Position numbers and translations under genes: made by a program | Part shown: positions 30,290-56,186 of the stretch, piece after piece | Numbering within the stretch: position 1 is the first letter of the stretch | Layout of the letters: the number at the start of each line of letters is the position of its first letter | Assembly: GCA_963760985.1 (NCBI GenBank) | Contig: CAVXFM010000010.1 | Coordinates: 388,430-452,429, forward strand | Origin: an uncultured delta proteobacterium | GTDB taxonomy: Bacteria > Desulfobacterota > Desulfomonilia > Desulfomonilales > Desulfomonilaceae | Direction of reading: 5' to 3' | Length of the DNA: 64,000 nucleotides | The notes under the pieces: model-generated | What the model was told of the DNA's origin: nothing | Seen by the model: only the letters and a program-made list of their open reading frames with translations | Database searches by the model: none

Positions 30290-30386
30290 GATTCGCGTCC
30301 AAACACGTGAGATTATAGGGCTGGGGGTCTCATGAGCGAAGTGATCAGACGGCCCTGCGTCGTCCGTAGCGAATGAGATCCCCAGC
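30290..30386 (+). repeat. intergenic repeat of about 100 nt, copy B
   Basis: GGATTCGCGTCCAAACACGTGAGATTATAGGGCTGGGGGTCTCATGAGCGAAGTGATCAGACGGCCCTGCGTCGTCCGTAGCGAATGAGATCCCCAGC aligns at about 75 percent identity with 56088-56186. Confidence 0.55.
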
Positions 30387-30499
30387 TTGAAGCAGCAACC
30401 AAGTGATAAATTTGAAAGCGAATCGGTATAAGATGTCACCGCCGCGAGAAGTCTCGCACGCGGTGGCATTCCACTTGTAAAGGAGGGATCGAGGAGTTG

Positions 30500-30528
30500 T
30501 TTGACTTTCGGTGCGAGCCTGCGTAATA
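30500..30528 (+). promoter_or_regulatory. sigma-70-like promoter candidate TTGACT-N17-TAATAT
   Basis: Good -35 and -10 with 17-nt spacer, about 90 nt upstream of the NfeD-like gene. Confidence 0.3.
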
Positions 30529-30619
30529 TAATGCTGGTTCATTCGCTACCATCTTGAATTTCCCTCATCACCGGGCGTTTCCTCGACCCCAACTCTGAAC
30601 CGCGGAGGTCTGTCGGCCT

Positions 30620-31240
30620 ATGGAATCCTGGTGGCAACATCTCACGAGTCTCAATAAGGCTTTTTGCGTATCCGCACTGTTCTTCACTCTGCTGTTCCTG
30701 TGGCAACTCGTGGGGATGCTGCTGGGCGTGGACGCTGATTCTCATGGAGCCGGGTGGCATGTGCCGACTCACGACGCTCCCCATGACTTCGACCACGATG
30801 GCCAGCAGGGAAGCGAAAACGTCGCGTTTTCCTTGATCTCGGTCCGATCGGCTCTGGCTTTTGGGATGATGTTCAGTTGGGCAGGTTCGCTGTATTTGAT
30901 GGGGGGCACGGCTCCTGTTTGGGCAGTGTTGTTCAGCCTGCTCTGGGGGATCGCAGGAATGTTCGCGGTCTCCTACCTGGTATTCTGCCTTCTCAAGCTT
31001 CAGGAAACGGTGAAGGTGTCCCTGTGGAGTGCGGTCGGAGAAAAAGGGACAGTCTATATGAACGTGCCTGAAAACGGGGTGGGCAAGGTGAGGGTAATGG
31101 TCGGCGGAGCAATCAGCTTCGTCAACGCTCGTTCGGTTGGCGGTGAGCCGCTGACGGCCGGGACGAACGTGAAGGTGGTGGATGTCGTGGACGATCACAC
31201 GATTGCGGTGCAGGCAACTGAGGACTCAGGGGGAGAGTAA
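30620..31240 (+). CDS. NfeD-like membrane protein (partner of SPFH/flotillin)
   Basis: N-terminal TM helices, His-rich loop, and C-terminal OB-fold-like soluble domain (KVRVMVGGAISFVNARS...KVVDVVDDHTIAV). Stop 1 nt before the flotillin start. Confidence 0.75.
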   Translation: MESWWQHLTSLNKAFCVSALFFTLLFLWQLVGMLLGVDADSHGAGWHVPTHDAPHDFDHDGQQGSENVAFSLISVRSALAFGMMFSWAGSLYLMGGTAPVWAVLFSLLWGIAGMFAVSYLVFCLLKLQETVKVSLWSAVGEKGTVYMNVPENGVGKVRVMVGGAISFVNARSVGGEPLTAGTNVKVVDVVDDHTIAVQATEDSGGE

Positions 31241-31241
31241 C

Positions 31242-32759
31242 ATGATGAACATGCTGATTTTGGTGCTGATCCTGGCTGGCTGGGTGGCCGCGATCCTTTG
31301 GATGTTTGTCCGCAGGTACAAACGGTGCCCTTCAAACCAGATTCTCGTTATTTATGGCAAGACAGGCGGAGGCGTTGCCAGGTGTGTTCACGGCGGCGCT
31401 GCCTTTGTCTGGCCGGTGATGCAGTCGTACGAATGGCTCAACCTCGAACCGTTTGTGGTTCCCATTGAGTTGACCAGCGCCCTGTCGCGCGAGAACATCC
31501 GGGTCTCAGTGCCCACGACGGTCACCGCGGCCATTAGCATCGAAGAAGGAATCATGCAGAACGCCGCAGTCCGCCTCCTCGGCCAGGGCATGGATGAGGT
31601 CAAGAAGCAAGCCCAGGACATCATTCTCGGCCAAATGCGTGCGGTGATCGCCACCATGCTGATCGAGGAGATCAACCGGGACAGACAAGCCTTTATGGCC
31701 AAAGTGAATGAAGCAGTCTCGGTGGAGCTCGAAAAGATCGGCCTGACCGTAATTAACGTCAACATCAAAGACATCGAGGATGAAAGCGGATACATCAAGG
31801 CGCTTGGTCGCAAGGCAGCGGCAGAGGCGGTGAACCAGGCGACGGTAGACGTGGCTGAGCAAGAGAAGACCGGAAAAATCGGCGTTGCCCAACGGGAGCG
31901 CGATCAACGGACCGCGGTAGCAGCCGCTTCTGCTGAGGCCATCGTGGGTGAGGCAGAAGCCGAACGGGATAGACGTAAAGCCGTTTCCGCGGCAAACGCG
32001 AGTGCAGCCGTAGGTGAAGCAGAAGCGGAACGTGACCGCAGACAGCAAACTTCTCTGCTGGATGCACAGGCCGTAGAAACCGAGACCCAGGCAAATGCCA
32101 AGAAGGCAGGCTTTCTGGCGGGCCAAAAAGTGGCGGAAGAAGAAGCGAGAACCAAAGGGCAAACTGCTACTGCAAGGGCTGATGGAAGCGTCCGCGTGGC
32201 TCACGAACAATCTCAGCAGGCAGCAGAAGAGGCCCGTGCCCGCAGAGAACAGGCCCGCTTGAATGCCGAAGTTGTTGTTCCTGCAGACGCAGCCAAGCAA
32301 AAGGCTGTGGTAGAGGCCGAGGCTGAGCGACAGAAGAAGATCCTGATCGCCAAAGGTGAGGCAGAGGGAACTCTCGCCAAGATGCAGGCAGAGGCCGAAG
32401 GTATGCAAGCGATACTCGATGCGAAGGCAGCAGGATACAAGGGGCTGGTTTCCGCGTGCAGTTCCGATCCCTCTTTGACTGCTGCATTGCTGCTTATCGA
32501 GAAACTGGCCGAATTGGCGCATATTCAGACCGAAGCGGTAAAGAACCTGCCCATCGAAAAAATCGTTATTTGGGACTCTGGAGGGGACGGAGGGATCTCC
32601 GATCTCGGGCGCCGTTTCATGGGGGTTCTCCCGCCCATGCAGGAATTGGCCAAGATGGCCGGGCTCGAGCTGCCCGATTTTCTGGGCCGAGCAGTGCCTA
32701 AGTCTGAAGCCTTGTCCGCGAGGAAAACCCAGGACGATTCCAAGACAAAACCTGAGTGA
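31242..32759 (+). CDS. flotillin-like SPFH/band-7 protein (YqiK/FloT-like)
   Basis: N-terminal membrane anchor, SPFH domain, and a long Ala/Glu-rich coiled coil with EA repeats (AEAERDRR twice). Confidence 0.85.
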   Translation: MMNMLILVLILAGWVAAILWMFVRRYKRCPSNQILVIYGKTGGGVARCVHGGAAFVWPVMQSYEWLNLEPFVVPIELTSALSRENIRVSVPTTVTAAISIEEGIMQNAAVRLLGQGMDEVKKQAQDIILGQMRAVIATMLIEEINRDRQAFMAKVNEAVSVELEKIGLTVINVNIKDIEDESGYIKALGRKAAAEAVNQATVDVAEQEKTGKIGVAQRERDQRTAVAAASAEAIVGEAEAERDRRKAVSAANASAAVGEAEAERDRRQQTSLLDAQAVETETQANAKKAGFLAGQKVAEEEARTKGQTATARADGSVRVAHEQSQQAAEEARARREQARLNAEVVVPADAAKQKAVVEAEAERQKKILIAKGEAEGTLAKMQAEAEGMQAILDAKAAGYKGLVSACSSDPSLTAALLLIEKLAELAHIQTEAVKNLPIEKIVIWDSGGDGGISDLGRRFMGVLPPMQELAKMAGLELPDFLGRAVPKSEALSARKTQDDSKTKPE

Positions 32760-32797
32760 TTTGCAGATCACCACGCTCTCGTCTGCGGGGAGCCTCC

Positions 32798-34966
32798 ATG
32801 AAAGACCGGGACATGGCGAGGGAAGAGCTGGCAGAAGAACTGGCGCGGCTGCGGCAAAGCGTTGCAGATCTGGAACGAGCAAATTCCTCATGGGAAGAGA
32901 AGTACCGCGTTCTCTACACGGACTTCCGCAAGGCGGAGGAGATCCACGTATCCGTCTTGAATTCCTCGGCAGACGCCATCGTCATCTATGACTTGCAGGG
33001 CACCGCTCGGTACGTGAATCCCTCGTTCACACAAAAGTTTGGCTGGACCCTGGACGAAGTGAAGGGACAGCGCATCCCGTACGTGCCTGACACCGATTAT
33101 GACGTCACCATGGAAATCATTCAGCATATCCTCCGAGAAGGCGAACCTTTCGGCGGGTTTGAGACGAAGCGGTGTACCAAACACGGGGGAATCGTGGACG
33201 TCAGCCTGAGCGCGTCCCGTTACAACGATCAGGACGGAAATCCTGCCGGGATACTCGTGATTCTTCGGGACGTGACGGGCAAGAAACGCGCAGACGAGGA
33301 ATTGCGCCAAGCTCGAGATGAGCTCGAGAAACGAGTCGAGGAACGCACCGAGGAGCTTTCCCGGGCCAACGAGAAGCTCAAACAGGAGATTGGGGAACGC
33401 AAGAAAGCAGAGGACGCTTTGCGGCAAAGCGAGGAGGAATTCAGGACTCTCTATGAAGAATCCGTGAAAACGCAGGAGCTCTACCGCTCACTCCTGGATT
33501 CGTGCGCGGACGGCGTGGTCGTGTACGATCTGGACGGCAACGCCCGGTACGTGAGCGATGCGTTCACGCGCATGTTCGGCTGGACTCTGGAAGAAGTCAA
33601 AGGCACGCGAATCCCCTTCGTTCCTGACTCGGAGCGCGAAGGCACCATGGCGCGGATTCACCATGTCCTTGGCCAGGGAATTGGTGATAGTGGTTTTGAG
33701 ACAAAGCGCCTTACCAAGGACAGCGTCCTCCTGGACATCAGGGCGAGCGCTTCCCGATTTAACGATCACGAGGGGAACCCGGCAGGAATGCTCGTCATCC
33801 TTTCGGATATCACGGATCGTAAGAAGGCCGAGCAGGCCCTGCTTGAAAGCGAGGAAAAATACCGGAAACTGGTCCAATACCTTCCCGATGGGGTGGCCAT
33901 CCATCAGGATGGACTTGTCGTCTTCACCAACGACGCAGGGGCCAGGCTCGTGGGAGCGAGTCGTGTCGAAGAGGTGGTGGATCTGCCGGTCATGCACTTC
34001 GTGGCCCCGGAAGACCGATCGTGTGCAGACAAGGAATTCGACCGCGTGTTGAAAAAAGGACGAGTCGCTCCATTGCAAGAGCAAAGGCTCTTGCGATTGG
34101 ACGGTGAGACCGTCTGGGTCGAAATGTCCGTGATTCCTTTCTCAGTTGACGGCAAGCCTGCGTTGCTCACAGTGGGAAGAGACATTACCGAGCGCAAACG
34201 GGTAGAGGAAGAAATCCGTAGGCTCAATGAAGAGCTCGAACAACGGGTGAAAGATCGGACAGCTCAGTTGGAGACGACCAACAAGGAACTTGAAGCCTTC
34301 GCGTATTCCGTGTCTCACGATCTCCGTGCGCCTTTGCGGAGTATCGACGGATTCAGTCAGGTGCTGATGGAAGACTATGCGCAGGCTTTGAACGGCCAGG
34401 CGCTGGATTACTTTCACCGCATCCGCGCTGCTTCTCGCAGGATGGGACAACTCATCGACGATCTGCTCAAGCTCTCCCGTGTCACTCGTAGCGAAATGCA
34501 TCGTGAAGCCGTGGACCTGAGTGCCATGGCCCACACCATCGCGACGGACCTTCGGAGAGCGGACCCCGACCGAAATGTAGAATTCCAGATCAGGCCAGGC
34601 CTGACGGACGATGGCGACCCGCGACTCCTGAGAGTGGTTTTGGAAAACCTGCTAGGTAATGCCTGGAAATTCTCCAGCAAACGCGCACACGCCACAATAA
34701 CGTTCGGCATGTTGCAACAGACTTTGCCGGGCCAGTCGGATCCGGTGGTCAAGACCGTGTATTTCGTGCAAGACAATGGCGCAGGTTTCGAAATGGCCTA
34801 TGCGGACAAATTGTTCGGCGCGTTCCAGCGTTTGCATGGGCTTTCCGATTTTCCTGGCACGGGTATCGGCCTTGCAACGGTCCAGCGGATCATACACCGA
34901 CACTGCGGGAGCGTATGGGCCGAAGGAGCAGTGGACGCGGGGGCAACATTCTTTTTTACCCTTTGA
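32798..34966 (+). CDS. cytoplasmic multi-PAS sensor histidine kinase
   Basis: Four PAS domains, two paralogous to those of the kinase at 20270-22471. HisKA (YSVSHDLRAPLRSIDGF) and HATPase (NLLGNAWKF...DNGAGF...GTGIGLATVQRIIHRHCG). Confidence 0.85.
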   Translation: MKDRDMAREELAEELARLRQSVADLERANSSWEEKYRVLYTDFRKAEEIHVSVLNSSADAIVIYDLQGTARYVNPSFTQKFGWTLDEVKGQRIPYVPDTDYDVTMEIIQHILREGEPFGGFETKRCTKHGGIVDVSLSASRYNDQDGNPAGILVILRDVTGKKRADEELRQARDELEKRVEERTEELSRANEKLKQEIGERKKAEDALRQSEEEFRTLYEESVKTQELYRSLLDSCADGVVVYDLDGNARYVSDAFTRMFGWTLEEVKGTRIPFVPDSEREGTMARIHHVLGQGIGDSGFETKRLTKDSVLLDIRASASRFNDHEGNPAGMLVILSDITDRKKAEQALLESEEKYRKLVQYLPDGVAIHQDGLVVFTNDAGARLVGASRVEEVVDLPVMHFVAPEDRSCADKEFDRVLKKGRVAPLQEQRLLRLDGETVWVEMSVIPFSVDGKPALLTVGRDITERKRVEEEIRRLNEELEQRVKDRTAQLETTNKELEAFAYSVSHDLRAPLRSIDGFSQVLMEDYAQALNGQALDYFHRIRAASRRMGQLIDDLLKLSRVTRSEMHREAVDLSAMAHTIATDLRRADPDRNVEFQIRPGLTDDGDPRLLRVVLENLLGNAWKFSSKRAHATITFGMLQQTLPGQSDPVVKTVYFVQDNGAGFEMAYADKLFGAFQRLHGLSDFPGTGIGLATVQRIIHRHCGSVWAEGAVDAGATFFFTL

Positions 34967-34996
34967 CGCTTCGGCGTTGACTGCGAGGGACTCAAT

Positions 34997-35437
34997 ATGC
35001 AGAGGAAGACCGTCCTCCTGGTCGAAGACAATCCGGACGATGAGGCCCTGACATTGCGGTCTTTGAACAGGAACAGCGTTGTCAACGACGTGATTGTTAC
35101 CCGCGATGGAGCGGAGGCCCTTGATTACCTCTTTTGCACCGGCAAGTACGCGGGCCGTGACCAAAGCGGACAACCCGAACTCATCCTGTTGGATCTGAAG
35201 CTCCCCAAAATAGACGGCCTGGAAGTGTTGAGGCGCATTCGTTCCGATGAGCGCACACGGCTCCTGCCCGTGGTGGTCTTGAGCTCGTCCGACGAGGAGC
35301 CTGACATGATGCAGAGCTACCTGCTCGGCGCGAACAGTTACGTGCGTAAGCCCGTCGAGTTCGGTCGCTTCGCGGAAGCGGTGCGCCAATTGGAACTCTA
35401 TTGGCTCGTCATCAATCAACCTCCTCCCGCGAAATAG
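34997..35437 (+). CDS. single-domain response regulator (CheY-like)
   Basis: TVLLVEDNPDDEALT...ILLDLKLPKIDGLEV...PVVVLSSSDEE...YVRKPV. Confidence 0.85.
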   Translation: MQRKTVLLVEDNPDDEALTLRSLNRNSVVNDVIVTRDGAEALDYLFCTGKYAGRDQSGQPELILLDLKLPKIDGLEVLRRIRSDERTRLLPVVVLSSSDEEPDMMQSYLLGANSYVRKPVEFGRFAEAVRQLELYWLVINQPPPAK

Positions 35438-35446
35438 GAATACCAC

Positions 35447-37403
35447 ATGAGCCAGCCGCTACGAGTGTTGATCGTAGAGGATTCGGAAGACGACGCACTG
35501 CTGCTCGTTCGGCAGTTGCGCCGAGGAGGGTACGATCCTACTTTTGAACGAGTGGACACACCTGCAACCATGCGAGCCGCGCTGGAATCGCATACGTGGG
35601 ACGCGGTGATTTCAGATTACGTGATGCCCTTGTTTAGCGCATATACCGCGCTCGAATATGTTGCGGGAAAAGGATCTCGACCTCCCGTTCATCGTCGTGT
35701 CGGGAGCTATAGGCGAAGAGACTGCCGTTGCGGCCATGAAGTCCGGCGTGCATGACTACATCATGAAGGACAACCTCAAGCGGCTCGTTCCCGCGATCGA
35801 ACGGGAACTCCGCGAGGCAGAGGGGCGCAGGGAGCGCAGACGTGCCCAGCAAGCGCTCGCAGAAAGCGAGGAACGCTATCGATCTCTTGTCGAGAATCTT
35901 GACATGGGGATCACGTTGATAGACCCGGATTTCACCGTGGTGATGCTCAACGCAGCAAGGGCAAAGATGATCGTTGCCCCAGAGACTCATGGTATCGGTC
36001 AAAAATGTTTCCGCACGCTGGAGAATCGAGGTACCGTGTGCCCGCAGTGTCCTGCAGTCTCCGCAATGTCTACAGGACAACCCGTGGAGGCGGACTGGGA
36101 AGGCGTGAGAAAAGGGGAATTTCGGGTCATGCGCATCCGGGCCTTTCCCACCTTTGCCCCTGACCGGTCGGTCACCGGTTGCATCGAAGTCATGGAAGAT
36201 ATCACCGTCCGTAAGCGCCTGGAACAACAACTCCGCCAAGCCGCACAGATGGAGGCCATTGGCAGGCTTGCCGGCGGGGTGGCTCACGACTTCAACAACC
36301 TCCTCACGGCCATGATCGGGTACTCGAACGTGTTGCTGCAGCAGATGGCCCAGGATAATCCGTACCGCGACAAGGTGGTGCAGATCACGTACGCTGCGGA
36401 ACGAGCCGCAGGCCTGACGCGACAGCTTCTGGCGTTCGGCCGCAAGCAAGTGCTGGACGTCAAGGTGCTGGATTTGAATCCCGTGATCGCAAATTTCCAG
36501 AAGATGCTGCGCAGGCTCGTGGGTGAGGATGTGGATCTTACCACGGTTTTGTTGCCGTCCGTGGCCAGAGTCAAGGCGGACAGGAGTCAAATCGAACAAA
36601 TACTGATGAATCTGTCGGTCAACGCGCGCGACGCGATGCCCCGAGGCGGCAGCCTGACGCTGTCCACCAGGGAGGTGATCCTGGACACAGAGTATGCGCG
36701 GATTCATCCGCATGTAGCTCCAGGACCGTACGTGGTGTTTTCGGTGAGCGATACGGGGACAGGAATGGATTTAGACACGGTGTCTCAAATCTTCGACCCG
36801 TTCTTCACCACCAAGGAAGAGGGCAAAGGAACAGGCCTGGGGCTGTCCACCGTGTACGGGATCGTCAAGCAGCATCAGGGCCACGTCTCCGTGGACAGTG
36901 AACCTGGGCAGGGCACGACGTTTCACGTATACTTGCCCATGTGCAGCGAAGCCCCGGATGAGGCCGAGGATATGGTCTCCATCGAGCCGCAGAGGGGTGG
37001 GGATGAGACGGTCATGGTCGTGGAAGACGAAGAAATCGTCCGGAATGTCGCGTGCGAAGTTCTGGAAATGCTCGGCTATACGGTGTTCTCTGCAGCTGAA
37101 CCGGAGACAGCGTTGAAAATTAGCCAGCAACATCAAGGCCCCATACATCTCCTGCTGGCTGACGTGGTGCTGCCGAGGATGGACGGGGCAAGCTTATTCT
37201 CTCGTCTGTCATCCACGCGGTCGGAGACAAGAGTCCTGTACGTGTCCGGATATCCGGAGAGATCGTTCATTCGCCGCGGAGTGCTGACTCCCGGAACGGA
37301 TTTCCTGCAAAAACCTTTCTCCTTCGAGAGCCTGGGGCACAAGGTGAGGGAAGTCCTGGACAAACCCATGAACCCCGTGGTGCAGGGCTCGCACATGGGG
37401 TGA
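35447..37403 (+). CDS. hybrid sensor histidine kinase REC-PAS-HisKA-HATPase-REC; apparent frameshift near 35657
   Basis: ORF 35447..35755 has the first half of a receiver (VLIVEDSEDD...VISDYVMP). ORF 35658..37403 in another frame continues it (DLPFIVVSGAIGEETAVAAMKSGVHDYIMK), then PAS, HisKA (GGVAHDFNNLLTAMIGY), HATPase and a second receiver. Confidence 0.7.
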
Positions 37404-37666
37404 GCAGGCCTGTGGACTCAGTACACACAGGCTCCTGTGGGGGCGTCAGAGAATGATAGTGAGCCCCATTGCGATTCGCTGCAACCATCGGGAACGGCTT
37501 TAGGTGGACCACACCGCTCAGCTTGCCGCGGATTATGGGCTTTTGGCACGCCGGATAGTGAAGCGCCGGTCGGTATGACCCACCAGACGGTAAGGCTCGG
37601 TTCGGTCTTCACTATGCCGCGATTTTTAAGGCGCTTCACTATACATCCTATGAACGGTGGAAGGAC

Positions 37667-38153
37667 TATGCAAGGCAAACGCTGCGAAGAAACTCGAATG
37701 ATTATGGCGGTTCAGATGAATCCCGAGGACGCGAACCCGTGGGGAAACGTCCACGGCGGCGTGATCATGAAATATATTGATACGGCTGCCGGGGTGGTGG
37801 CCCATCGGCATGCGAGACGCAACTCGGTCACCGCGTCGATAGACCGGCTGGATTTCCATCACCCGGTCTATGTGGGAGACTTGCTCATACTCAAAGCAAG
37901 TCTGAATTGGGCGGGCAGAACCTCCATGGAAGTGGGTGTGCGTGTGGAAGCCGAGAACTTGTTTACTGGCGAGATTAGGCACACCGCGTCGGCATATCTT
38001 ACGTTTGTCGCCCTGGGAGAAAACAAGAGGCCAGAGGAAATACCCCCATTGATCGTGGAGACCGCGGACGAGAACCGACGCAACTGCGAAGCGCAACAGC
38101 GGCGAGACATACGCATGGATCAGAGAAGGCGAGAGCGTGCATGTAAGGCCTAG
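37667..38153 (+). CDS. acyl-CoA thioesterase (hotdog fold, YciA-like)
   Basis: NPWGNVHGGVIMKYIDTAAGVVAHRH...YVGDLLILKASLNWAGRTSMEVGVRVEAE is typical of the 4HBT/acyl-CoA hydrolase family. Start codon uncertain. Confidence 0.7.
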
Positions 38154-38312
38154 TGCATCTCTTCGCCATTCGCGTGCCGCGCGCGGCAGAATCGGCAAGA
38201 GCCCTTGCCTGTGGGGGAATGGCAAGAATGACTCGTGAAATCGTGGACAAGAACAAGCGGATAGGCAGTCAGACCACATGACGGGAACCACGTGCTCCGG
38301 GCACGACGACAG

Positions 38313-42548: not shown

Positions 42549-42587
42549 CCTATCCGTATCCTGGTAAGCCTGTATCGCTCTCCTCCC

Positions 42588-42655
42588 GCTTCGCTTTCAC
42601 ACAAGTAAGACCGTAGGGCCGGGGTTCAGCCAAGCGAATTGATGAGAGGACTTTG
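42588..42655 (+). repeat. diverged copy C of the intergenic repeat (left arm TTCGCTTTCACAC...GTAGGGC)
   Basis: Shares TTCGCTTTCACAC-N-GTA-N-GGGC and AGCGAAT-GATGAGA segments with copies A and B. Confidence 0.35.
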
Positions 42656-42723
42656 CACCGTCCGTACTGAGGATTTCCCGCCTGGAACCTGAACCAACTC
42701 ATGCACGCAAAGGCGAACCCATA

Positions 42724-43953
42724 TCACACTCCCCGACGTTTCATCAGTCGGTCGAGCTCGGAAACCGCCGCGGCCGCGCAGGCCTCGTCATTGATGTGCG
42801 CATCCACTTCCTGCACCTTGACTTGTTCGTGGAGCAGCGCCTTCAATTCCGTTACAAAGGCCTGATTGATATCAGGCTCGTAAAGAGGGCCGGTAAGCGT
42901 GTCCGCTTCCGACCATCCTCTGAGGGGAATCAGCAACGAGACAGGCCCTTTGGCGCGGTTCAGTTTCTCTGCAATGGTACGAGCCAGTTGCAGCACGTCC
43001 TCTTGGCTGGTGCGTACGCCGGACCTGAAATCATACCAGAAGACTTTACGGCCCTTCACTGCTACGGGCATCGTCTCCAAAGAATTGAATTCCAGCACAA
43101 TGCAATCCAACCCTCCGGGGACGATCACCTGCGGGATACCCCTTTTACTTGCCGATTCCAACCTCCCAGGCCCGATGCCGCCGCAGTACCCTCCGTATAG
43201 CTCATCCGCGAACTCGTGAAGCGCATAATCCACCACCCCATCGATGAGGCCCTGATCTATGAGATCCTCCAAGGCCATGCCGCCGGTGCCGTTGGCATGG
43301 AACGGAGCCACTTCATAACCGAGATTCTCCAGCAAGTTTTTGACACGCATCGCTCCCTCGGTAATGAACCCGAATGAGGTGAGACCGATGATTGCCTTCT
43401 CCGGGACAATCTTGCCGCAAGTCCTGGTCATGCCCGCAATGGCCGATGCCGCGTTGGTGAGGATGCGTATGCTGATGGAATTGAGGCCAAGCACGTCGAT
43501 CACAGAGTGCATGACCGTGATATCCTTGGTACTGATGAGCTGACTCATGTCTCTGGATGCGACAGTTGAGACCATCAGCTTCGGCACCCCGAGAGGTAAG
43601 CTACGCATGACACCCATACCGATGTGGGTTCCGGTTCCACCGCCGACAGAAATAATCCCGGAAAGCCTCTCCTGGTCGTACAAAACCCGTACCACCGACG
43701 AGGCTCCCTGGGTCATCGTCTCAACCGCAAGCCGCCTGTCCTTTGCCTCCAGAACTGCCTCGATTGTGGAACCTGCCGCGTGCGCCACCGTTTCCCGGGT
43801 AACATCCGCGGAGATCGTGGGAGGATGGAGCGTGCCCACATCTACCACGATCGTGGAACATCCATCGCACTCCAGACGTTGTTTGAGAAATCCGACTTCG
43901 TCACCTTTGGTATCGAGCGTTCCGACTATGACGACGTAAACGGGCATGATCAC
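42724..43953 (-). CDS. UPF0261 (Tm-1-like) family protein
   Basis: 409 aa, intact. Typical UPF0261 N-terminus (VYVVIVGTLDTKGDEVGFL) and conserved GGGTGT segment. Confidence 0.8.
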   Translation of the reverse strand: MIMPVYVVIVGTLDTKGDEVGFLKQRLECDGCSTIVVDVGTLHPPTISADVTRETVAHAAGSTIEAVLEAKDRRLAVETMTQGASSVVRVLYDQERLSGIISVGGGTGTHIGMGVMRSLPLGVPKLMVSTVASRDMSQLISTKDITVMHSVIDVLGLNSISIRILTNAASAIAGMTRTCGKIVPEKAIIGLTSFGFITEGAMRVKNLLENLGYEVAPFHANGTGGMALEDLIDQGLIDGVVDYALHEFADELYGGYCGGIGPGRLESASKRGIPQVIVPGGLDCIVLEFNSLETMPVAVKGRKVFWYDFRSGVRTSQEDVLQLARTIAEKLNRAKGPVSLLIPLRGWSEADTLTGPLYEPDINQAFVTELKALLHEQVKVQEVDAHINDEACAAAAVSELDRLMKRRGV

Positions 43954-45791: not shown

Positions 45792-46240
45792 CACGGTTCT
45801 CTGTGCAGGCCAGCCTTTGCTCACTGAATGCGCTGCGTTCCCGACCACGGATGCACGAGTCTTTGTACCCGCGGTTCGGGAAAATGGCTTGCTGCGTACA
45901 AAATGACAGATCTCCTTCTATTATAGTATAAGTCAAACTGATACACCTATAATTTTTTGTGACTTGACTTCCAGGCCCGAGTCGCTGACAATCTTTACCA
46001 AGGAGATCCAGATCTCTGTAATAGGTTTTGTATGACATAATCCACGCTTATGCCTGTCTTGAGGGAATGGGCCGGTCTTTGGCCACACCGGTCGGAATTC
46101 CGGGAGTGGGGACAGGTTCGATTACGCTCACTTTTAGGGAATAACATCTTATGTGATCACACACAGACTTCGGCTGGTCGGTCCGGAAGACTGAGCCTTA
46201 CCTGAACGACGGAAACAACATTTGTGCAAGGCGACTCCAT

Positions 46241-47349: not shown

Positions 47350-47435
47350 AGATAGCAAGAAGGAAGTTATTCGGTAGATCTCACAACAAATCACCCGGTT
47401 TCGACGCCAGGCAACTCAAGCAGGAGGTAGCACAC

Positions 47436-49268
47436 ATGGCCGAGTTGAAGTTCCCGAGTCCCCACGAAGCAGAGCGTATTCCAGGAACGGAAGGTTGGGA
47501 GCGAATGTATCCCTACCATTACCAGTTCAGCACCGACAACCCGGATCGTAAGCACTACGAAGAGAACATGTTCTGGTTTTATGACGGGCTGCACTATCCG
47601 GAACCCATGTATCCCTTTGACATTATATGGGATGAAGCGTGGTTTCTGGCACTGTCACAGTTCAACACGCGTATCTTTATTGTGCCTCCCGCCATGGGAA
47701 TAGATCACCGTATTCACAACGGCTATATCTACATCACGCCATTGCCCGTCGCCGACCCGGCAGATATTCCCAAGAGGGCGGAACACTTCATGAAACGGGC
47801 TGGCTATTATTACCAGAACTGGGACAAGCTCCACGACAACTGGGAATCGAAGATGCGAGGGATCATCGCAGAACTCGCTGACCTGAAGATTCCTGTCCTA
47901 CCCGAAATGGAGGATGAGTCGGTCGTCCTGGAAGGGAAGGGCACGTCCACCGGTTATACGCTGCTCAATGCGTACGACAAGCTTATCGATCTGGGCATCT
48001 TGTGTTGGCAATACCACTTCGAGTTTCTGAATCTCGGATACGCTGCATACGTGGTGTTCGTGGACTTCTGCCAGAGAGTCTTCCCCGACATCCCGCTCCA
48101 GAAGATCACCCAGATGGTGGGCGGCATTGACGTCATCATCTACAGACCCGACCAGGAACTGAAGAAGCTTGCGAAACTGGCTATCGATCTCGGCGTAGAC
48201 GACATCGCCATGGCCGGAGAAGTGGATTCAGTGCTCGGAGCCATGGAAAAGTCCGAGAACGGCAAGAAATGGCTCCAGGCCTTCAACGCAGCCCGAGACC
48301 CGTGGTTCTATGTGTCCACAGGAACCGGCTGGTATCATCATGACAAATCCTGGAACGACGATCTTAACATTCCGCTGGACGCTATGCGCATCTACATCGA
48401 GAAGCTCCGTCAAGGAGCCAATATCGAGCGCCCCACCGCCAAAATCATCGAAGAGCGGGACAGACTGGCCACTGAATACCGGGCCTTGATCACGAGCGAA
48501 GAAGACCGGGCGACTTTCGACCAGTTGCTGGGAACGTCACGGACAGTCTTCCCCTATGTGGAGAACCACCTTTTCTACGTGGAGCATTGGTTCCACAGCC
48601 TCTTCTGGAACAAGATGCGTGAGGTGGCTGCCATTCTCGTAGAAAACAAGTTCATCGCGGAAGTGGAAGACGTCTGGTACCTCACGAGAGCGGAGATCAA
48701 GGATTGTCTCTGGGACGTGGTGACCGCATGGGCCACCGGAAGTAACCCTCGCGGACCTCTGGTATGGCCTAAAGAAGTTGCGTGGCGCAAGGGAGTGATG
48801 GACAAGTTCCGTGAGTGGACGCCACCGGATGGCATGGGCAAAGTCCCGGAAACCATTTCCGAACCCTTTACCATCGTGCTGTGGGGCATCACGTCCGAAT
48901 CGATGGCACACTGGGCCAAGCTGAAGACCGTGGCAGAGGGCGACCTCTCGAAGATTATCGGCTTCCCCGGATCGCCAGGAGTGGTGGAAGGTAAGGTTCG
49001 TGTGTGCCGCACGGTCAAGGAGATCGGCGAACTCAAAGAGGGCGAGATCCTCGTGGCGCCGACCACCTCACCAAGCTGGGCACCGGCATTCCAGAAAATT
49101 AAAGCAGCCATCACTGACGTCGGCGGCGTCATGTGTCACGCGGCCATTGTGTGTCGCGAATACGGCCTTCCTGCCATCGTGGGCACAGGTTCGGCAACCT
49201 CCAGACTGAAAACCGGCATGAAGATCAAATTGGACGGTTCCAAAGGGGAGATCAATATCCTCTCGTGA
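47436..49268 (+). CDS. ppsA: PEP-synthase-like protein with C-terminal PEP-utilising mobile His domain (phenylphosphate synthase PpsA-like)
   Basis: 610 aa. C-terminal phosphohistidine motif GGVMCHAAIVCREYGLPAIVGTG. Size and architecture match the roughly 70-kDa PpsA subunit. Confidence 0.7.
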   Translation: MAELKFPSPHEAERIPGTEGWERMYPYHYQFSTDNPDRKHYEENMFWFYDGLHYPEPMYPFDIIWDEAWFLALSQFNTRIFIVPPAMGIDHRIHNGYIYITPLPVADPADIPKRAEHFMKRAGYYYQNWDKLHDNWESKMRGIIAELADLKIPVLPEMEDESVVLEGKGTSTGYTLLNAYDKLIDLGILCWQYHFEFLNLGYAAYVVFVDFCQRVFPDIPLQKITQMVGGIDVIIYRPDQELKKLAKLAIDLGVDDIAMAGEVDSVLGAMEKSENGKKWLQAFNAARDPWFYVSTGTGWYHHDKSWNDDLNIPLDAMRIYIEKLRQGANIERPTAKIIEERDRLATEYRALITSEEDRATFDQLLGTSRTVFPYVENHLFYVEHWFHSLFWNKMREVAAILVENKFIAEVEDVWYLTRAEIKDCLWDVVTAWATGSNPRGPLVWPKEVAWRKGVMDKFREWTPPDGMGKVPETISEPFTIVLWGITSESMAHWAKLKTVAEGDLSKIIGFPGSPGVVEGKVRVCRTVKEIGELKEGEILVAPTTSPSWAPAFQKIKAAITDVGGVMCHAAIVCREYGLPAIVGTGSATSRLKTGMKIKLDGSKGEINILS

Positions 49269-49505
49269 CCCCTGAGTAACTGTCCCGCAACAGGTTTTTC
49301 AGGAAACCCGTATAAGACTCAACAAGACCGTCACCCTGGCGGGCCCCGGATCAGCATCCGAGGCCGCCGGGGTCCAGAAAACCCCAAAAGACATGGATTC
49401 CGGGGTGTACCGGAATGACGAACGCTGGACCACAGGATTCATAACCAAGGCTACCAATAGACTGGTCTATTTTGGGGACGGTCCCAAAGGATAGAGGCTT
49501 TTCCG

Positions 49506-50585
49506 ATGGAAATATCCAAGTATTTGATTCCATTCGAACAATGCGACATGACCATGGTCGACATTGTCGGCGGGAAATGTGCCAGCCTGGGAGAGTTACT
49601 GAGAGCCCAGATCCCCGTGCCTCCCGGATTTGCCATTACCACCGAGACGTACAAGCAGTTTCTCGCAGACAACGACCTGACAACGAAAGTCATCGACAGG
49701 CTCAAGGGCGTCAACGAGAGCATGAACGATGAGGTTGAACAGGCATCTGCCGACATCCGTGCATGGATTGAAGCCGGAACCATAAGCGAGGCTCTCGAGG
49801 ATATCATTGCGGATGAGTATCGGCTTCTTTCGCGTGTGGCCCGCACTCCTGCACTTCCCGTGGCAGTCCGTTCCTCGGCTACCGCGGAGGATCTGCCGGA
49901 CGCGAGCTTTGCCGGCCAGCAGGACACGTTCCTGTGGATCCGTGGAGTGGACGACCTCTTGGATCGAATTCGCAAGTGCTGGTCCAGTCTGTTTACCCCG
50001 CGAGCGATTTCTTACCGCACCAAAATGGGCTTCGACCACAGTCAGGTCTTTCTCAGCGTGGCAGTGCAGAAGATGGTTCGTTCCTTTACCGCGGGGGTAA
50101 TGTTCACTCTCAACCCGTCCACAGGGGATCCTTCCACGGTGGTCATCGACTCGAACTGGGGATACGGCGAAAGCGTCGTTTCCGGAGAAGTAACTCCCGA
50201 CCAGTTCCACGTGAACAAGATCACCCTGGAGGTTACCAAGAAGACCATTTCCGAGAAACAGATCTATTACACGACAGATCCTGCCACCGATCAGGTCATC
50301 AAAATCGAGCCGGAACCGCAACGGCGGGTCGCTCAGAGCTTGCTGGATATGGAGATCGTCGAACTCGCCAGGATCGCGAAAATCATTGAGAAGCACTACG
50401 GCAAACCGATGGACATCGAATGGGCAACGGAGAAATCCCTGCCGTTCAAAGGCGAGGTGTACATCCTTCAGAGCCGGCCCGAAACCGTGTGGAGCCGTAA
50501 AGTGGTCAAGCCGGTCATGGAGCCCAAGAAGAGCGCTTTGGAGCACATCGTCGCAGGTCTCATTAAAGGAAGAAAGGTCACCTGA
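49506..50585 (+). CDS. ppsB: PEP-synthase N-terminal ATP-grasp (PPDK_N) domain protein (phenylphosphate synthase PpsB-like)
   Basis: 359 aa. DIVGGKCASLGEL, SSATAEDLPDASFAGQQDTFL, and NWGYGESVVSGEVTPD are typical of the PPDK_N nucleotide-binding domain. Confidence 0.7.
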   Translation: MEISKYLIPFEQCDMTMVDIVGGKCASLGELLRAQIPVPPGFAITTETYKQFLADNDLTTKVIDRLKGVNESMNDEVEQASADIRAWIEAGTISEALEDIIADEYRLLSRVARTPALPVAVRSSATAEDLPDASFAGQQDTFLWIRGVDDLLDRIRKCWSSLFTPRAISYRTKMGFDHSQVFLSVAVQKMVRSFTAGVMFTLNPSTGDPSTVVIDSNWGYGESVVSGEVTPDQFHVNKITLEVTKKTISEKQIYYTTDPATDQVIKIEPEPQRRVAQSLLDMEIVELARIAKIIEKHYGKPMDIEWATEKSLPFKGEVYILQSRPETVWSRKVVKPVMEPKKSALEHIVAGLIKGRKVT

Positions 50586-50651
50586 AACGCCACCGCAACG
50601 AGCCAGAATCACATCTACCCGAAACGGAGACGCGAGGAGGAAGAAACCCAC

Positions 50652-52060
50652 ATGAAAGACATGAGAGATTTTATCAAAGCAGGAGAGGAACGGGGCTTGT
50701 GCAAACGAATTACCGCACAGGTCGACTGGAACCTGGAATTGTCGCATATCGCGAAACTCAACGAAGAGGCCTGCGGGCCCGCACTGCTATTTGAGAATGT
50801 GAAGGATTACAAGACCCCGGTCATCACCAGCGTGTGCACCACCACGGAACGGCTGGCCCTGATCATGGGGCAACCGCTCGACTCAACTCTGGTGGATCTT
50901 TACGAAGCCTGGGCAAAGTTGGGCGCAAATCTGATTCCGCCAAAATTTATCGACAAGGCCGGAGCCCCCTGCAAGCGAAAACATCCTCACCGGAGACCAG
51001 ATCGATCTATACAAATTCCCCGTTCCCCACTGGTATCCCAAGGACGGCGGACGTTATATGGGCACGGCCCACTTTGTCATCTCCAAGGACCCTGAGTCGG
51101 GCTGGGTCAACCTAGGCACGTACCGGGGCCAGCTTCTTGGGAAAAGACAAGATGGGGACCCAGTTCATCAAGGGCAAACACGCGGACATCATGTTGAAGA
51201 AATACCAGGCAATGGGCAAACCGATGCCCGTGGCCTCGATTATCGGATGCGATCCCCTCCTGTTTATTCTCGGGGCAGCGCGCGTGTCCGCTTTTGTATC
51301 CGAGTATGACGTGGCAGGCGCTCTCAGGGGAACACCAGTGGAAGTGGTGCAAGGAGAAACCGTCGACCTGCCCATCCCTGCCCATGCCGAGATCGTTATT
51401 GAAGGCGAAGTGGATGCGAACAAATTCATGGAAGAGGGACCGTTTGGCGAGTACACCGGCTATTACTCCGGCGTAGGCACGGACCCGCGGAATTTTATCG
51501 ATGTGAAATGCATCACTCACCGGGACAATCCGATTCTGTGGGGAACCACCGTCGGCCGTGCGGTGACGGACACGCACATGACCATGGCGCTTTCCTACGG
51601 AGCGACTCTCTGGCAGCAGCTCCTAGCCATGAAAATACCCGGTCTGAAAGCGGTGTACTGTCCTCCGGAGGGTTCTGGCAGGTTCCTCGCCATCATCTCC
51701 ATGAAGCAGATGTATCCGGGCCACGCTGACCAGGTGCTCACTGCCGCCATCTCCACGGAAATGGGTGCGTACGGCCTGAAAACAGTGATCGTGGTGGATG
51801 AAGACATAGATCCCTGGGACATTCCCCGAGTAATGTACGCGCTGAGTTTCAGGTTCCAGCCCAATCGTTCCCAGGTCATTAAACGGGGCCGGTCCACACC
51901 GCTGGATCCTTCCCTGCCCATCGACGCGAGGGACATCACGGGCAGACTACTCCTGGATGCCACCATACCCTATGACTGGAAAGAAAAACCGATTCCCATC
52001 GAATTGGATGCGAAGATGGTGGAAAGAGTCAAGGCCCGGTGGTCTGAACTGGGATTGTAA
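50652..52060 (+). CDS. UbiD-family prFMN-dependent (de)carboxylase (phenylphosphate carboxylase PpcB-like); two apparent frameshifts (about 50988 and 51141-51144)
   Basis: Three successive frames carry continuous UbiD homology. ORF 50652..51095 reads ...APCK. ORF 51058..51309 frame reads ENILTGDQIDLYKFPVPHWYPKDGGRYMGTAHFVISKDPESGWVNLGTYRGQLLGK. ORF 51137..52060 reads DKMGTQFIKGKH...EYTGYY...IVVDEDIDPWD. One extra C after AAG and an A4 versus A3 run explain the shifts. Confidence 0.75.
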
Positions 52061-52173
52061 GTGGGAAATCGGAAAAGGGAACCCGGAATTTTCTCTGCGG
52101 TTCCCACGCTCCGGAAGGGAACCGATGCCGGACGCTTCGCGTCGCACGACTCCGGACTGGCAAGGAGGCCTCA

Positions 52174-53835
52174 TTGAAACCGATTCGATACAAGAAAGAG
52201 ATGGTGGATGAATTCGTAAAGAATGGGTACTGGACCCAGGAGACCTTTTACGATTTCTGGGACAGAAACGCCCGTGAATATGGCGACAGAGAAGCCCTGG
52301 TCGATTCCAAGTACCGCCTGACTTGGGCCGAGGCAAAGCGTCTGGTAGATGCCATGGCTATTTCATGGGTAGAGATGGGGATTCCTCAGCATTCCCGCAT
52401 CATCGTCCAGTCTCCCAACAGCGTGTACGGATTTCTCTCCAGAATTGCCTGTGAAAGGGCCGGCCTGATCTCCTTGACGGTGTACCCTTACCTTCGGCAG
52501 AGGGAACTGGAATACATGGTCGAGCGGACCGAAGCGTCGGCCGTGATCATTGTCAATATCTACAACAAATTCAATTATCTGGAAATGTACGCAGGACTCC
52601 AGAAGCAGTTTCCTCATTTGAAGAACATCTTTCTCTTTGATGATGAAGTGCCCGATTCTGCTCCCCCGGGAACCTTCTCACTTACCCGCATCGTGAATGA
52701 GCGGGTCAAGAAGCCCGTGGACGAGGCTGTGCTTGCGGAAAGAAGACTTGATCCTCTGTTGAATGTGGCGCTGCTCACCACGACATCGGGAACCACAGGA
52801 ATTCCCAAGCTTGTGGAATGGCCCATCGCTCCCCGAGTCTGCACGTCCAAGGGCAGAGTGGATATCTGGAATCTTTCCAAGGACGACATTACCATGGCCA
52901 TAGCGCCTCATGCTGGTGGCGCGGCCGGAACACTCACGTATTTTGCCGCTCCGCTGGTTGGGGCAAAGACCGTCATGCTGGAGGAATTCTCTCCCGAAGG
53001 AGCCTTGGCCCTCATCGAAAAGGAAAAGGCAACAGCAATCGGTGTCGTGCCCACTCACCTGGTGAGAATGCTCAGCGTTGATGCCTCCAAGTATGATCTG
53101 AGTTCGCTTCGCTTTATCCGTTCAGCCGGCGGCTATCTTTCGCCGCAGATTGCCGAGGAGGCCGAGCAGGCTTTCGGCGCTTCCATAACCAGCGATCTGG
53201 GCACTCAGGACATGGGGTCAGTGTCCGGATGTCGTGTGGAGGATTCCAAGGACCTGCGCCGCAGGACAGTCGGACGCATGCTTCCGGGAAACCAGGTGCG
53301 TCTCATGGCTGAAGACGGCAAGAGTGAAGTTTCCGACGGAGACCCTGGAGTCCTCTTTTTCCGTGGGCCTCATGCGCCTGCCGGGTACTACCGCGACGAG
53401 GAACTTACTTCCACGGTCTTCGATCCCAACGGCTGGACCACCACTGGCGATATCGTCAAATTCGACCAGGGGTGTTTGTGGATACTGGGAAGGGCCAAGG
53501 ACATGATCATCAGGGGTGGCCAAAATATCTATCCCGCGGAGATCGAGGGACTTTTGAACGATCATCCCAAAGTGAGCACGGTTGCGGTGGTCGGATACCC
53601 GGATCGGGAAATGGGCGAGCGGGCATGTGCGTACGTCATTCCCAAGGCAGGCCAGGAATTCACGTTCAAGGAAATGGTCGATTTTCTGAAATCCAAGAAT
53701 ATCGCCATGTTCAAACTGCCTGAACGTCTGGAGGTGGTGCAGGAGTTGCCCACCGTGGGCGATTCCGGAAAAGTGAACAAAGAGACCCTGAAAAAAGAAA
53801 TCAGAGAAAAGGTGGCCGCGGAGGGCAAATCCTGA
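52174..53835 (+). CDS. AMP-forming acyl/aryl-CoA ligase (4-hydroxybenzoate/benzoate-CoA ligase-like)
   Basis: 553 aa. AMP-binding motif TTSGTTGIPK, TGDIVKFDQGCLWILGRAKDMIIRGGQNIYPAEIE and C-terminal Lys (GKVNK). Confidence 0.8.
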   Translation: MKPIRYKKEMVDEFVKNGYWTQETFYDFWDRNAREYGDREALVDSKYRLTWAEAKRLVDAMAISWVEMGIPQHSRIIVQSPNSVYGFLSRIACERAGLISLTVYPYLRQRELEYMVERTEASAVIIVNIYNKFNYLEMYAGLQKQFPHLKNIFLFDDEVPDSAPPGTFSLTRIVNERVKKPVDEAVLAERRLDPLLNVALLTTTSGTTGIPKLVEWPIAPRVCTSKGRVDIWNLSKDDITMAIAPHAGGAAGTLTYFAAPLVGAKTVMLEEFSPEGALALIEKEKATAIGVVPTHLVRMLSVDASKYDLSSLRFIRSAGGYLSPQIAEEAEQAFGASITSDLGTQDMGSVSGCRVEDSKDLRRRTVGRMLPGNQVRLMAEDGKSEVSDGDPGVLFFRGPHAPAGYYRDEELTSTVFDPNGWTTTGDIVKFDQGCLWILGRAKDMIIRGGQNIYPAEIEGLLNDHPKVSTVAVVGYPDREMGERACAYVIPKAGQEFTFKEMVDFLKSKNIAMFKLPERLEVVQELPTVGDSGKVNKETLKKEIREKVAAEGKS

Positions 53836-55075
53836 TGGAACGAGTCATCCTTGTCCTGTCCACCCTGGACACCAAAGGGCCGGAAACCTTGTACCTCCGG
53901 GATCGGATCCGACAGCATCGGGCCTTCCCGATGGTGTTGGATCTGAGCATGTCGTCCGCGAGCCCGGATGCAGACATCTCCTCAGCGGATGTGGCTCGAG
54001 CCGCGGGCACGGATATTGAGCAGATTTCGCGCATCACGGGAGCGCAAGCTGATCACTCGGCAAATGATTAACGGCGCGGTGAAACTCACGTTGGATCTCC
54101 TGCAATCCGGTCGTCTGGCCGGGGTAATCGGCCTGGGGGGTTCCACCGGGAAGTTTGATGGCCACCGACGTGATGCGTGCGTTGCCGTTTGGGGTTCCCA
54201 AACTCATGGTTTCTTCTACCGCTGCACTGCCGGGGCTTGCCACGCGGTACATCGCCACCGGGGATATTTCGATCCTGCACACCGTGATAGAGATCGCGGG
54301 CTTGAGCGTTCCTTTGCGCAACGTCCTGGATCGCGCGGCCGCGGCCATCGTAGGCATGGCCGAGGTTGAGCCTCTCACCGGGGAATCGCTGCGTTCGGAG
54401 GGCAAGCCGCTGGTGGCCATGTCCATGTTCGGGCCCACGGAGCATTGCGCTCATCACGTGCAGCAACGTCTGGAGCAAGAAGGATTCCAGGTGATCGGGT
54501 TTTCCGCGGCAGGGATGTGCGATCGGGCAATGGAAGACATGATCGGTATGCGATTCTTTGACGCAGTGGTGGATGTGGCGCCTGGAGGGGTGGGCGAGGA
54601 GGTCCTCGGCGGTATGCGGGCTGCAGGTCCGCAACGTCTCACCACCGCGGGCAAACTGGGCATCCCTCAGGTGGTGGCGCCTGGAGGGGTCAACCTCACC
54701 AGCCAGCGCAAGTCTCGGTACAAACCCGAGCACCACGAACGGAGAAAATACGAGCTGGATGAATTGCGGACATTCCTCAGAGTGTCTGACGAGGAGATGG
54801 AACAGATAGCCCGCGTCTTTGCGGAAAAGCTCAATCAAGCGACAGGACCCGTCATTTTCCTGTTCCCCACTCAGGGTTGGTCTGCGGTGGATCCTGTGTC
54901 GGGGCACATGTGCGACAGGGAGCAGGACCGCCTGTTTCTCAAGGTGTTGCGGGAAAATGCTGCCCCGCACGTGATCATCCGAGAGGTTGATGCGAACCTC
55001 GAGGACAAGGCCTTTGCCGAGGCCGTAGCGCATGCGTGCCTGGAGGTATTTCCCCGACCGCAACCACGGGCTTAA
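53835..55075 (+). CDS. second UPF0261 (Tm-1-like) paralogue; two apparent frameshifts (about 54040 and about 54160)
   Basis: ORF 53835..54071 (MERVILVLSTLDTKG...), ORF 53968..54369 frame (INGAVKLTLDLLQSGRLAGVIGLGGSTG) and ORF 54155..55075 (ALPFGVPKLMVSS...). Together they align end-to-end with the intact paralogue at 42724-43953. Confidence 0.65.
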
Positions 55076-55361
55076 TACCGGGGTCCTGTCGTGATTTTCT
55101 CATACTGGTGTGCGCCGATTCAGGCAGTAATGGCAGGCACGCGCCATGCCTCCCACGCGCAGCCAGACTGGACGTTTGCAGCGGAGGAGGCATGACGCTT
55201 GGCTTCCTTGCTTTTGCGCACACTGGTACAAGGCCCTTCTGACCGTACCGATGACGAACGCGGGTTGGTGTCTCAGTCAGGAGTCAGGCTTCGCACACAG
55301 GTAGCTCCCCCGCCAGGGTGGAGCTGCCCACATCATTAAATCCCGCGACAGGGAGGCTCTC

Positions 55362-56000
55362 ATGTTGGTAAAGAACTGGATGCTGCCGCAACAATATTCC
55401 ATTTCCAGCGATGCACTTGCTGTTGAGGCGGTGATGCTCATTCGTGAGCACAATCTGAAGATGCTTCCGGTGGTCGATCAAGGCAGGCTTCGCGGAGTTG
55501 TCCATCGCAGGGACCTCAGCGAAGCGGCTTACTGTGTCAGTGGGAGCGGCGATCTCTGTGAAATGAACTATTTCTGCAATAAGCTCAAAGTCAAGGACGT
55601 GATGGTCCGCATGCCCGTAACCGTGTCAGTGGACGACACGGTGGACGACACACTCATCAAAGGCAGAGACTTGCTGATGAGCACCTTTCCCGTAATGGAC
55701 GGCGAAAAAGTTGTGGGCGTGGTGTCGGACCGTGAAATATTCGTGACCCTGTTCAAACTCCTGGAAGCGGGAGCGGAGCGCACCAGGTTTACCTTGAGCG
55801 ACGTGACTCTCGAAAAAGGAACTCTCTCGAACATCCTGCGTATCGTGGACGAGAACGGTGCGGTGGCTCATGCGATCTTTACCGTTCCCAACGGGAAGAA
55901 CGGCCATTGTCGGGTGGTGTTGCGATTGCAGGCGGACAACCCGGAAGCGATCAGGCAAGCGCTCAGTGACGCAGGGTTCACCATACTTGAGTATTCTTGA
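55362..56000 (+). CDS. CBS-pair protein with C-terminal ACT-like region (PpsC-like stimulatory subunit candidate)
   Basis: 212 aa, two CBS motifs (MLPVVDQGRLRGVVHRRDL and TFPVMDGEKVVGVVSDREI). About 24 kDa. Confidence 0.65.
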   Translation: MLVKNWMLPQQYSISSDALAVEAVMLIREHNLKMLPVVDQGRLRGVVHRRDLSEAAYCVSGSGDLCEMNYFCNKLKVKDVMVRMPVTVSVDDTVDDTLIKGRDLLMSTFPVMDGEKVVGVVSDREIFVTLFKLLEAGAERTRFTLSDVTLEKGTLSNILRIVDENGAVAHAIFTVPNGKNGHCRVVLRLQADNPEAIRQALSDAGFTILEYS

Positions 56001-56087
56001 CAGAACGGATTTTCTCGCTCCCTGTGACCACTGGGAGCGAAGGCTTCCCCAGACTTCGGTGCGTGCTCGCTTCGCGTCTCTCATTCC

Positions 56088-56186
56088 GATTCGCTTTCAC
56101 ACGCGTAGCATTGCAGGGCTGGAGATCTCCTGAGCGAAGTGACGAGACGGCTCCGCGTCGTTCGTAACGAACGCGGGGCCCCAGCC
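56088..56186 (+). repeat. intergenic repeat of about 100 nt, copy A (full-length)
   Basis: CGATTCGCTTTCACACGCGTAGCATTGCAGGGCTGGAGATCTCCTGAGCGAAGTGACGAGACGGCTCCGCGTCGTTCGTAACGAACGCGGGGCCCCAGCC. Internal palindrome CGTTCG-TAA-CGAACG. Terminal inverted GGGCTGG...CCAGCCC. Confidence 0.55.

Follow-up and report, generated by a model that had tools for sequence, protein, structure and literature searches.

A probable family of 144-bp miniature transposable elements duplicating TNA target sites in Desulfomonilaceae-related genomes

Several classical MITE (miniature inverted-repeat transposable element) families have been described in bacteria, including Correia (Neisseria), ERIC (Enterobacteriaceae), RUP (pneumococcus), Nezha (cyanobacteria), and Chunjie (Geobacter) (PMC3184786). 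Among the insertion sequences (IS) of the IS5 family, elements of the IS1031 group prefer TNA as their target and make an exclusive 3-bp repeat (PMC12016507), and C|TNA|G targets have been described for the PIF/Harbinger-IS5 (PHIS) superfamily (PMC4482050). Here, we analyzed an intergenic repeat in a 64-kb stretch of contig CAVXFM010000010.1 from an uncultured member of the Desulfomonilaceae, hereafter the window, for which an earlier note had offered three candidates: a small non-coding RNA family, a MITE, and a shared binding region for a regulatory protein. Our analysis strongly supports the second of these, and we consider it highly probable that the repeat is a MITE family, that is, a non-coding and non-autonomous DNA transposon of ~144 bp. 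Inverted ends, TNA duplications, empty sites, copy number, and non-syntenic positions all agreed with a MITE, whereas the small-RNA and binding-region candidates were not borne out.

A repeat search of the window grouped positions 30285-30373, 42583-42671, and 56083-56171 as one family (D1) with 66-78% identity over 89 nt. A covariance model (R1) built from these three copies, designated B, C, and A, respectively, re-found them in the 64-kb window at 131-157 bits (E = 1e-30 to 1e-37), far beyond chance, thereby confirming the three copies described earlier. The window holds four full-length copies in total, and, since the fourth (copy D) lies on the minus strand, they do not all share one orientation as had been stated. 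When flanking sequences were included in the alignment, the homology across copies reached ~144 nt rather than the previously noted ~100 nt. The aligned window copies begin with T(A/T/C)C(C/G)G(A/C)TTCGC and finish with GCG(A/G)A(T/C)...(G/C/A)(T/C)A, and the true ends of the element form an imperfect terminal inverted repeat (TIR), TACSGATTCGC...GCGAATCSGTA, in which TACGCATTCGC and GCGAATCCGTA are complementary at 10 of 11 positions. The TIR is 11 nt long in the window copies, 15 nt in a copy from a related locus (L134), and up to ~18 nt (TACCAATGCGCTTTCAAA) in the related families F2/F4. GGGCTGG...CCAGCCC and similar sequences, which had been taken for terminal repeats, proved to be an internal stem, with the real termini lying ~30 nt further out on each side. 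The element is 140-146 nt in size, and the longest internal open reading frame (ORF) of the consensus, judged by eye, is 9 codons, leaving no coding capacity. Copy B shares 74% identity with the Desulfomonilaceae family consensus, and even copy C was matched at E = 9e-18 by nhmmer with a profile of all 97 unique full copies, window copies included.

Every full-length copy was displayed together with its flanks, giving a set of 97 unique full-length copies. An identical 3-nt direct repeat abutted both ends in 77 of them, and 76 of these 77 duplications were TNA (TCA 24, TGA 22, TTA 16, and TAA 14), the remaining one being CCA. Neighboring offsets yielded only 0-3 matches among the 97 copies. 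Since T and A are fixed, the middle base of the triplet alone is informative, and the observed 77 of 97 compares with ~27% expected by chance (p = 9e-27). The flanks of the insertion sites showed a weak C|TNA|G preference. Since the flanking repeat is direct (TCA...TCA) and not inverted (TCA...TGA), it represents a duplicated target and is not part of the TIR. The check for target-site duplications that the earlier note had recommended was thus positive.

Empty sites were also identified. The left and right flanks of four copies (loci L030, L117, L095, and L067), when joined by a single TTA, reproduced an uninterrupted hairpin repeat, GTTCGGGGAGGAACGTCTTACAAGAAGTTCCTCCCCGA. This sequence gave 58 junction-spanning matches in the same genome, many of which were one site counted on both strands, corresponding to ~30 or more distinct uninterrupted sites. 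The TTA of the empty site lies in the loop of the hairpin, which itself belongs to a ~220-bp element, F4. These uninterrupted paralogous sites are direct evidence of insertion with TTA duplication.

We also compared the window with syntenic regions of relatives. Two of these, L134 (CysS 91% identical) and L135 (86%), keep the gene order CBS - protease - PBP - ispF(YgbB) - cysS - ABC, and neither carries a family copy in the CBS/protease spacer (the site of copy A) or 3′ of cysS (the site of copy D). The CBS/protease spacer measures 172 nt in L135 versus 374 nt in the window, and the two align on both sides of the missing copy A. A relative with an 80% identical flotillin had no copy within 9.5 kb, the region upstream of nfeD included. 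As copies were not found at the syntenic sites of relatives, they are insertions and not conserved parts of these operons. L134 has its own family copies elsewhere, and in one of them (14632-14766) the TTA/TTA duplication is perfect and falls on a stop codon. Other repeats occupy L134:4330-4880 and L134:11460-11720, where the window has A and D; one of the L134 repeats begins with TACGAGTGCG, and a block in common is GACTGGATTYCGGCCTYCGCCGGAAYGACGA. The spacers of A and D appear to be hot spots for small insertions.

The search for further copies recommended in the earlier note was productive well beyond the fourth window copy. Scanning one genome per species with a degenerate pattern of the core yielded 13 loci, of which 11 were chance matches and only those of a Desulfomonilaceae metagenome-assembled genome (MAG), SMAG_U12378, were real; two contigs of this MAG hold three copies at 48-94 bits. 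A second core pattern returned at least 120 loci from JGI metagenomes, and among the matches listed, nearly all came from sample Ga0187785, whose contigs are 99.9-100% identical to the MAG (SMAG_U12378 = Ga0187785). Profile searches detected 156-182 matches in 1.03 Mb of fetched Desulfomonilaceae DNA. About 30 partial matches in this DNA fell exactly at contig ends, indicating that metagenome assemblies break inside the repeat. In a related Desulfomonilaceae genome, the family has reached at least 100 copies by amplification. The young copies of the Ga0187785 population are ~95% identical to their own consensus, whereas the window copies are 58-74% identical to it. The window organism itself differs from SMAG_U12378, as coding stretches in common are only ~66-70% identical at the DNA level; its CysS and flotillin show 69-76% identity to proteins of Desulfomonile and Desulfomonilaceae. 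Since the window copies are only 61-71% identical in pairwise comparison, two of their four duplications have decayed, and two copies have lost their fold, we infer that the family is no longer recently active in the window's genome.

Related families were found in the fetched loci. F1 (145 nt), F2 (154 nt, with TACCAATGCGC ends), and F3 (126 nt) are homologous and have their ends and central hairpin in common, and the stem sequences differ yet still pair. F2, F3, and F4 have the same termini as the 144-nt family and different interiors, and the elements are nested in one another. F4 is a MITE family of ~220 bp; it contains three internal hairpins, and its ends (TACSAATGCGCTTT) are of the same type. 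Its profile gave 206 matches in these loci, a count that still includes strand duplicates, and one of its loops serves as an insertion site for the 145-nt family. Coordinates of the window copies, their duplications, and examples of F4 are given in the table.

Table. Coordinates of the element copies, target-site duplications, and structural features (window positions unless a locus is named; CM, covariance model; MFE, minimum free energy).
Feature	Position	Strand	Description
MITE copy B	30286..30428	+	143 nt; TACGGATTCGC...GCGAATCGGTA; best preserved; CM R1 157 bits
Left duplication of B	30283..30285	.	TAA, from sequence; identical to right one
Right duplication of B	30429..30431	.	TAA, from sequence
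Central hairpin of B	30318..30388	+	arms 30318-30333 and 30373-30388 (CTGGGGGTCTCAT...ATGAGATCCCCAG); MFE structure
Core of B	30334-30372	+	GAGCGAAGTGA...CGTCCGTAGCGA, enclosed by hairpin arms; conserved across families F1-F3
MITE copy C	42584..42723	+	140 nt; most decayed; CM 131 bits, itself a seed sequence
Right duplication of C	42724..42726	-	TCA on + strand; minus strand TGA = stop codon of UPF0261 gene
MITE copy A	56084..56227	+	144 nt; TTCCGATTCGC...GCGGATGGGCA; CM 144 bits
Left duplication of A	56081..56083	.	TCA, from sequence; identical to right one
Right duplication of A	56228..56230	.	TCA, from sequence
MITE copy D	62836..62978	-	143 nt; inverted vs A-C; CM 81.8 bits, E=4e-18; nhmmer E=4e-34
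Duplication of D	62833..62835	+	TAA, also stop codon of cysS
F4 examples	L021:13649-13871, L036:6397-6615, L048:12044-12262, L048:14650-14872, L052:2921-3143		

Two further repeats in the window were observed. At 55102-55228, a 127-nt element has its own inverted ends, TACTGGTGTGCGC...GCGCACACTGGTA (11 of 13 complementary), with TCA and CAA as flanks, and matches the MITE covariance model weakly (17.6 bits). We regard it as a possible further member, likewise decayed, of this TAC...GCGC-ended superfamily. A 57-nt repeat, AACTCCCATGAC.TGGAGGGTCACCACGAACCATGAAAATG..TTTTCATAGGAAC, occurs at 26161-26217 and 28259-28420, with 98% identity between the copies over the first 41 nt. In the second copy, the repeat is interrupted by ~105 nt containing a hairpin, GGGTTCGGGGGAAGGCCCTTCTTTCAAGAAGGGCCTTCCCCCGA, that is similar to the 3′ hairpin of F4, the 220-bp MITE (nhmmer E = 4e-7).

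The window copies are all intergenic, and three of the four adjoin gene 3′ ends. Copy A sits between a CBS-domain gene (plus strand) and a trypsin-like protease gene (minus strand). Pfam searches supported most of the gene context given earlier, namely NfeD (weak), Band_7/flotillin, CBS, Trypsin_2 for the protease, and UPF0261, whereas the ORF that had been called a CPBP protease had no Pfam match. In 18 of the 97 copies, the duplicated TNA served as the stop codon of an open frame of 100 or more codons, compared with 5.7% among TNA sites overall (p = 9e-6). TAA and TGA are themselves TNA sites, and for this reason insertions often fall exactly on a stop codon, which the duplication restores. 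In the window, copy C is inserted at the TGA of the UPF0261 gene (42724-43953, minus strand) and copy D at the TAA of cysS (ORF listed at 61348-62835). At the 3′ end of cysS (62821-62835), the TAA/TAG stop of the L134 and L135 orthologues aligns with CAG in the window, where the gene continues with Q-T-D past the orthologues' stop and ends at the TAA duplication of copy D. As the orthologues stop four codons earlier, the window cysS now terminates at the MITE border.

With regard to mechanism, the element inserts at 5′-TNA-3′ with duplication of those 3 bp. Its movement would be of the cut-and-paste type and depend on a DDE transposase supplied in trans, which would bind the terminal 15-30 bp and introduce staggered cuts of 3 bp. 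The family matches the target signature of the IS1031 group (TNA with an exclusive 3-bp direct repeat), and, because that group uses a TNA target with a 3-bp repeat, the enzyme would most likely belong to the IS5 family (IS1031-like) or the PIF/Harbinger superfamily.

Several observations weigh against the MITE interpretation or against parts of it. First, neither an autonomous element nor a transposase with these ends was found in ~1.1 Mb of fetched loci, in the window, or in viral contigs. No partner appeared among TIR pairs 400-6000 bp apart with matching duplications, among multi-copy segments longer than 400 bp in the loci, or among single ends lying beyond the known copies; checks for TIR matches within the window and of a plasmid database likewise revealed none, and a scan of viral contigs returned 30 chance matches, none of them real. 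Given that no cognate transposase was found, it is the target signature that links the family to IS1031/PHIS. Second, the family ends, TACGCATTCGC, are unlike the one IS1031-group end compared, GAACCTGTCTAGTATCT of ISLrh (PMC12016507), and, as far as these sequences go, we do not regard IS1031-group membership of the mobilizing element as established. Third, a perfect duplication is kept in only two of the four window copies (A and B). Copies C and D match at two of three bases, the left partner of the C duplication (42581-42583) having decayed to TCC and the partner of the D duplication (62979-62981) to CAA (TTG/TTA in the orientation of the element). Fourth, a clean single TNA could not be recovered at the orthologous empty sites of A and D, where the spacers are too diverged or filled by other repeats. 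Fifth, conservation of the central ~40 nt (TCTCC-GAGCGAAGT...CGTYCGTAGCGRAGGAGA) exceeds that of the linkers, in comparisons between genomes as well as across three families, and this is not explained by simple neutral decay. Part of this signal is ascertainment, since a core-derived pattern was used to fetch the metagenome loci; for this reason, the lower core divergence among young copies was not used as evidence of selection.

The ~40-nt core at the tip of the central hairpin, common to three MITE families with differing stems and linkers and to genomes with genes only ~66-70% identical in DNA, may act as a functional module and not be mere filler. A transposition cofactor or a host protein might bind to it, or it could be an RNA element that these MITEs spread through 3′ untranslated regions. 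An undescribed TNA-targeting IS group is also conceivable as the source of the mobilizing enzyme, because the TAC...GCGC ends are unlike known IS1031 ends. The reading that joins these two ideas, in which the core is a functional module and, separately, the enzyme could come from such a group, strikes us as unlikely. Variants of the 145-nt element were observed at L043:2770-2914 and L108:612-760, where the orientation of the central hairpin and core is reversed with respect to the two linker arms. This arrangement suggests inversion across the inverted repeats of the stem.

A different explanation is that the copies encode a family of structured small non-coding RNAs, or that they are several paralogous copies of an RNA element acting in cis, and the folding results bear on it. 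The young consensus (z = -4.5), the intact L134 copy (z = -8.2), and copy B (z = -4.4) fold far better than shuffled sequences, each into one long hairpin, and the central hairpin is kept by differing sequences in F1, F2, and F3. When 84 distinct copies were aligned by fitting to the model, 85% of cells were paired versus 28-45% for slid partners, and double changes occurred at 17 pairs versus 8-12. However, hairpin formation is a general property of MITEs, and this pairing pattern is their usual look and by itself no indication of an RNA gene. Moreover, the fold is weaker in copy A (z = -2.3) and has been lost in copies C and D, which behave like shuffles in element orientation (z about 0; C z = +0.2). 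The core is conserved across genomes with coding genes only ~66-70% identical in DNA, as might be expected of an RNA, but its inversion relative to the arms in L043 and L108 would not be tolerated by a strand-specific RNA. No Rfam family reached the gathering score anywhere in the window, searches at E up to 10 with copies A and B and locus L006 gave only noise, and no tRNA or tmRNA genes were found in the window. The elements occur in both orientations without bias to neighboring genes (convergent pairs 10:9; tandem genes 5:5:5:5), counts that use crude ORF calls (>=90 aa) which gave many spurious ORFs across the element. Together with the ~180 profile matches accompanied by target-site duplications and empty sites, and with A and D not being conserved at syntenic sites, these results make an RNA family very improbable.

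Still less probable is that the repeat is a common site bound by a regulatory or nucleoid protein through which the neighboring genes (nfeD-flotillin, protease, UPF0261, and cysS) are coordinated. The conserved blocks, including a direct repeat AGCGAAG...AGCGAAG in the core, and the intergenic position of all copies would suit such a site, but the neighboring genes are functionally unrelated, and positions downstream of gene ends are as frequent for the element as upstream ones, including three of the four window copies at 3′ ends. Relatives lack the element at the same operons, the nfeD-flotillin promoter region among them, and features of mobile DNA account for the distribution without any regulon. 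The least plausible explanation is a repetitive extragenic palindromic (REP)/REPIN-type repeat spread by a RAYT (IS200-like tyrosine/HUH) transposase, which would share the intergenic location often just past stop codons, the hairpins, and the high copy number, but REP/REPIN mobilization leaves no target-site duplication whereas ~80% of our copies have a 3-bp TNA duplication, REPs carry a GTAG-type head that the element lacks, and its asymmetric linkers and non-palindromic core do not form a pair of short inverted REPs. The earlier note had rightly judged that the repeat is not a simple REP palindrome.

Taken as a MITE family, the repeat in the window is ordinary selfish DNA in four old and partly decayed copies, and not a new RNA gene or regulatory site. 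We propose that the 144-nt blocks and at least three sister families with the same ends be masked as MITEs in Desulfomonilaceae-related genomes and not be treated as candidate riboswitches or small RNAs. These MITEs also explain contig breaks in the metagenome assemblies concerned. A TNA target makes stop codons safe landing sites, because the duplication regenerates the stop, as seen here for cysS and the UPF0261 gene. Common ends combined with exchangeable interiors illustrate how a single transposase can sustain a small ecosystem of non-autonomous elements. The family is new, but the kind of element is well known, and the use of the finding lies mainly in annotation.

Compared with known systems, the family is closest to the MITEs derived from IS1031-group IS5 elements and to those of the PHIS superfamily (Tourist-like MITEs, NuwaII), with which it shares the TNA target and a duplication of exactly 3 bp (PMC12016507), the weak C|TNA|G flank preference (PMC4482050), short TIRs, small size, and the lack of coding capacity. 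It differs from the IS1031 group in its termini (TACSNATKCGCTTT...), which are unlike the group end quoted in PMC12016507. REP/REPIN (RAYT) repeats are likewise high-copy intergenic hairpins often found just downstream of genes; however, REPs are short palindromes without target duplication, whereas the present family has TIRs and a TNA duplication. Correia duplicates TA, and, in a comparison made by eye only, the classical MITEs show no sequence likeness to the family. Nevertheless, they resemble it in their size of 100-235 bp, TIRs, flanking direct repeats, very stable predicted hairpins, intergenic location, and empty/filled sites between relatives (PMC3184786). Chunjie is distinguished from it by 21-bp inverted repeats and 9-bp direct repeats (PMC3184786). 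In contrast to these classical families, the present one is found in Desulfomonilaceae-related Thermodesulfobacteriota and comprises several sub-families with common ends and differing interiors.

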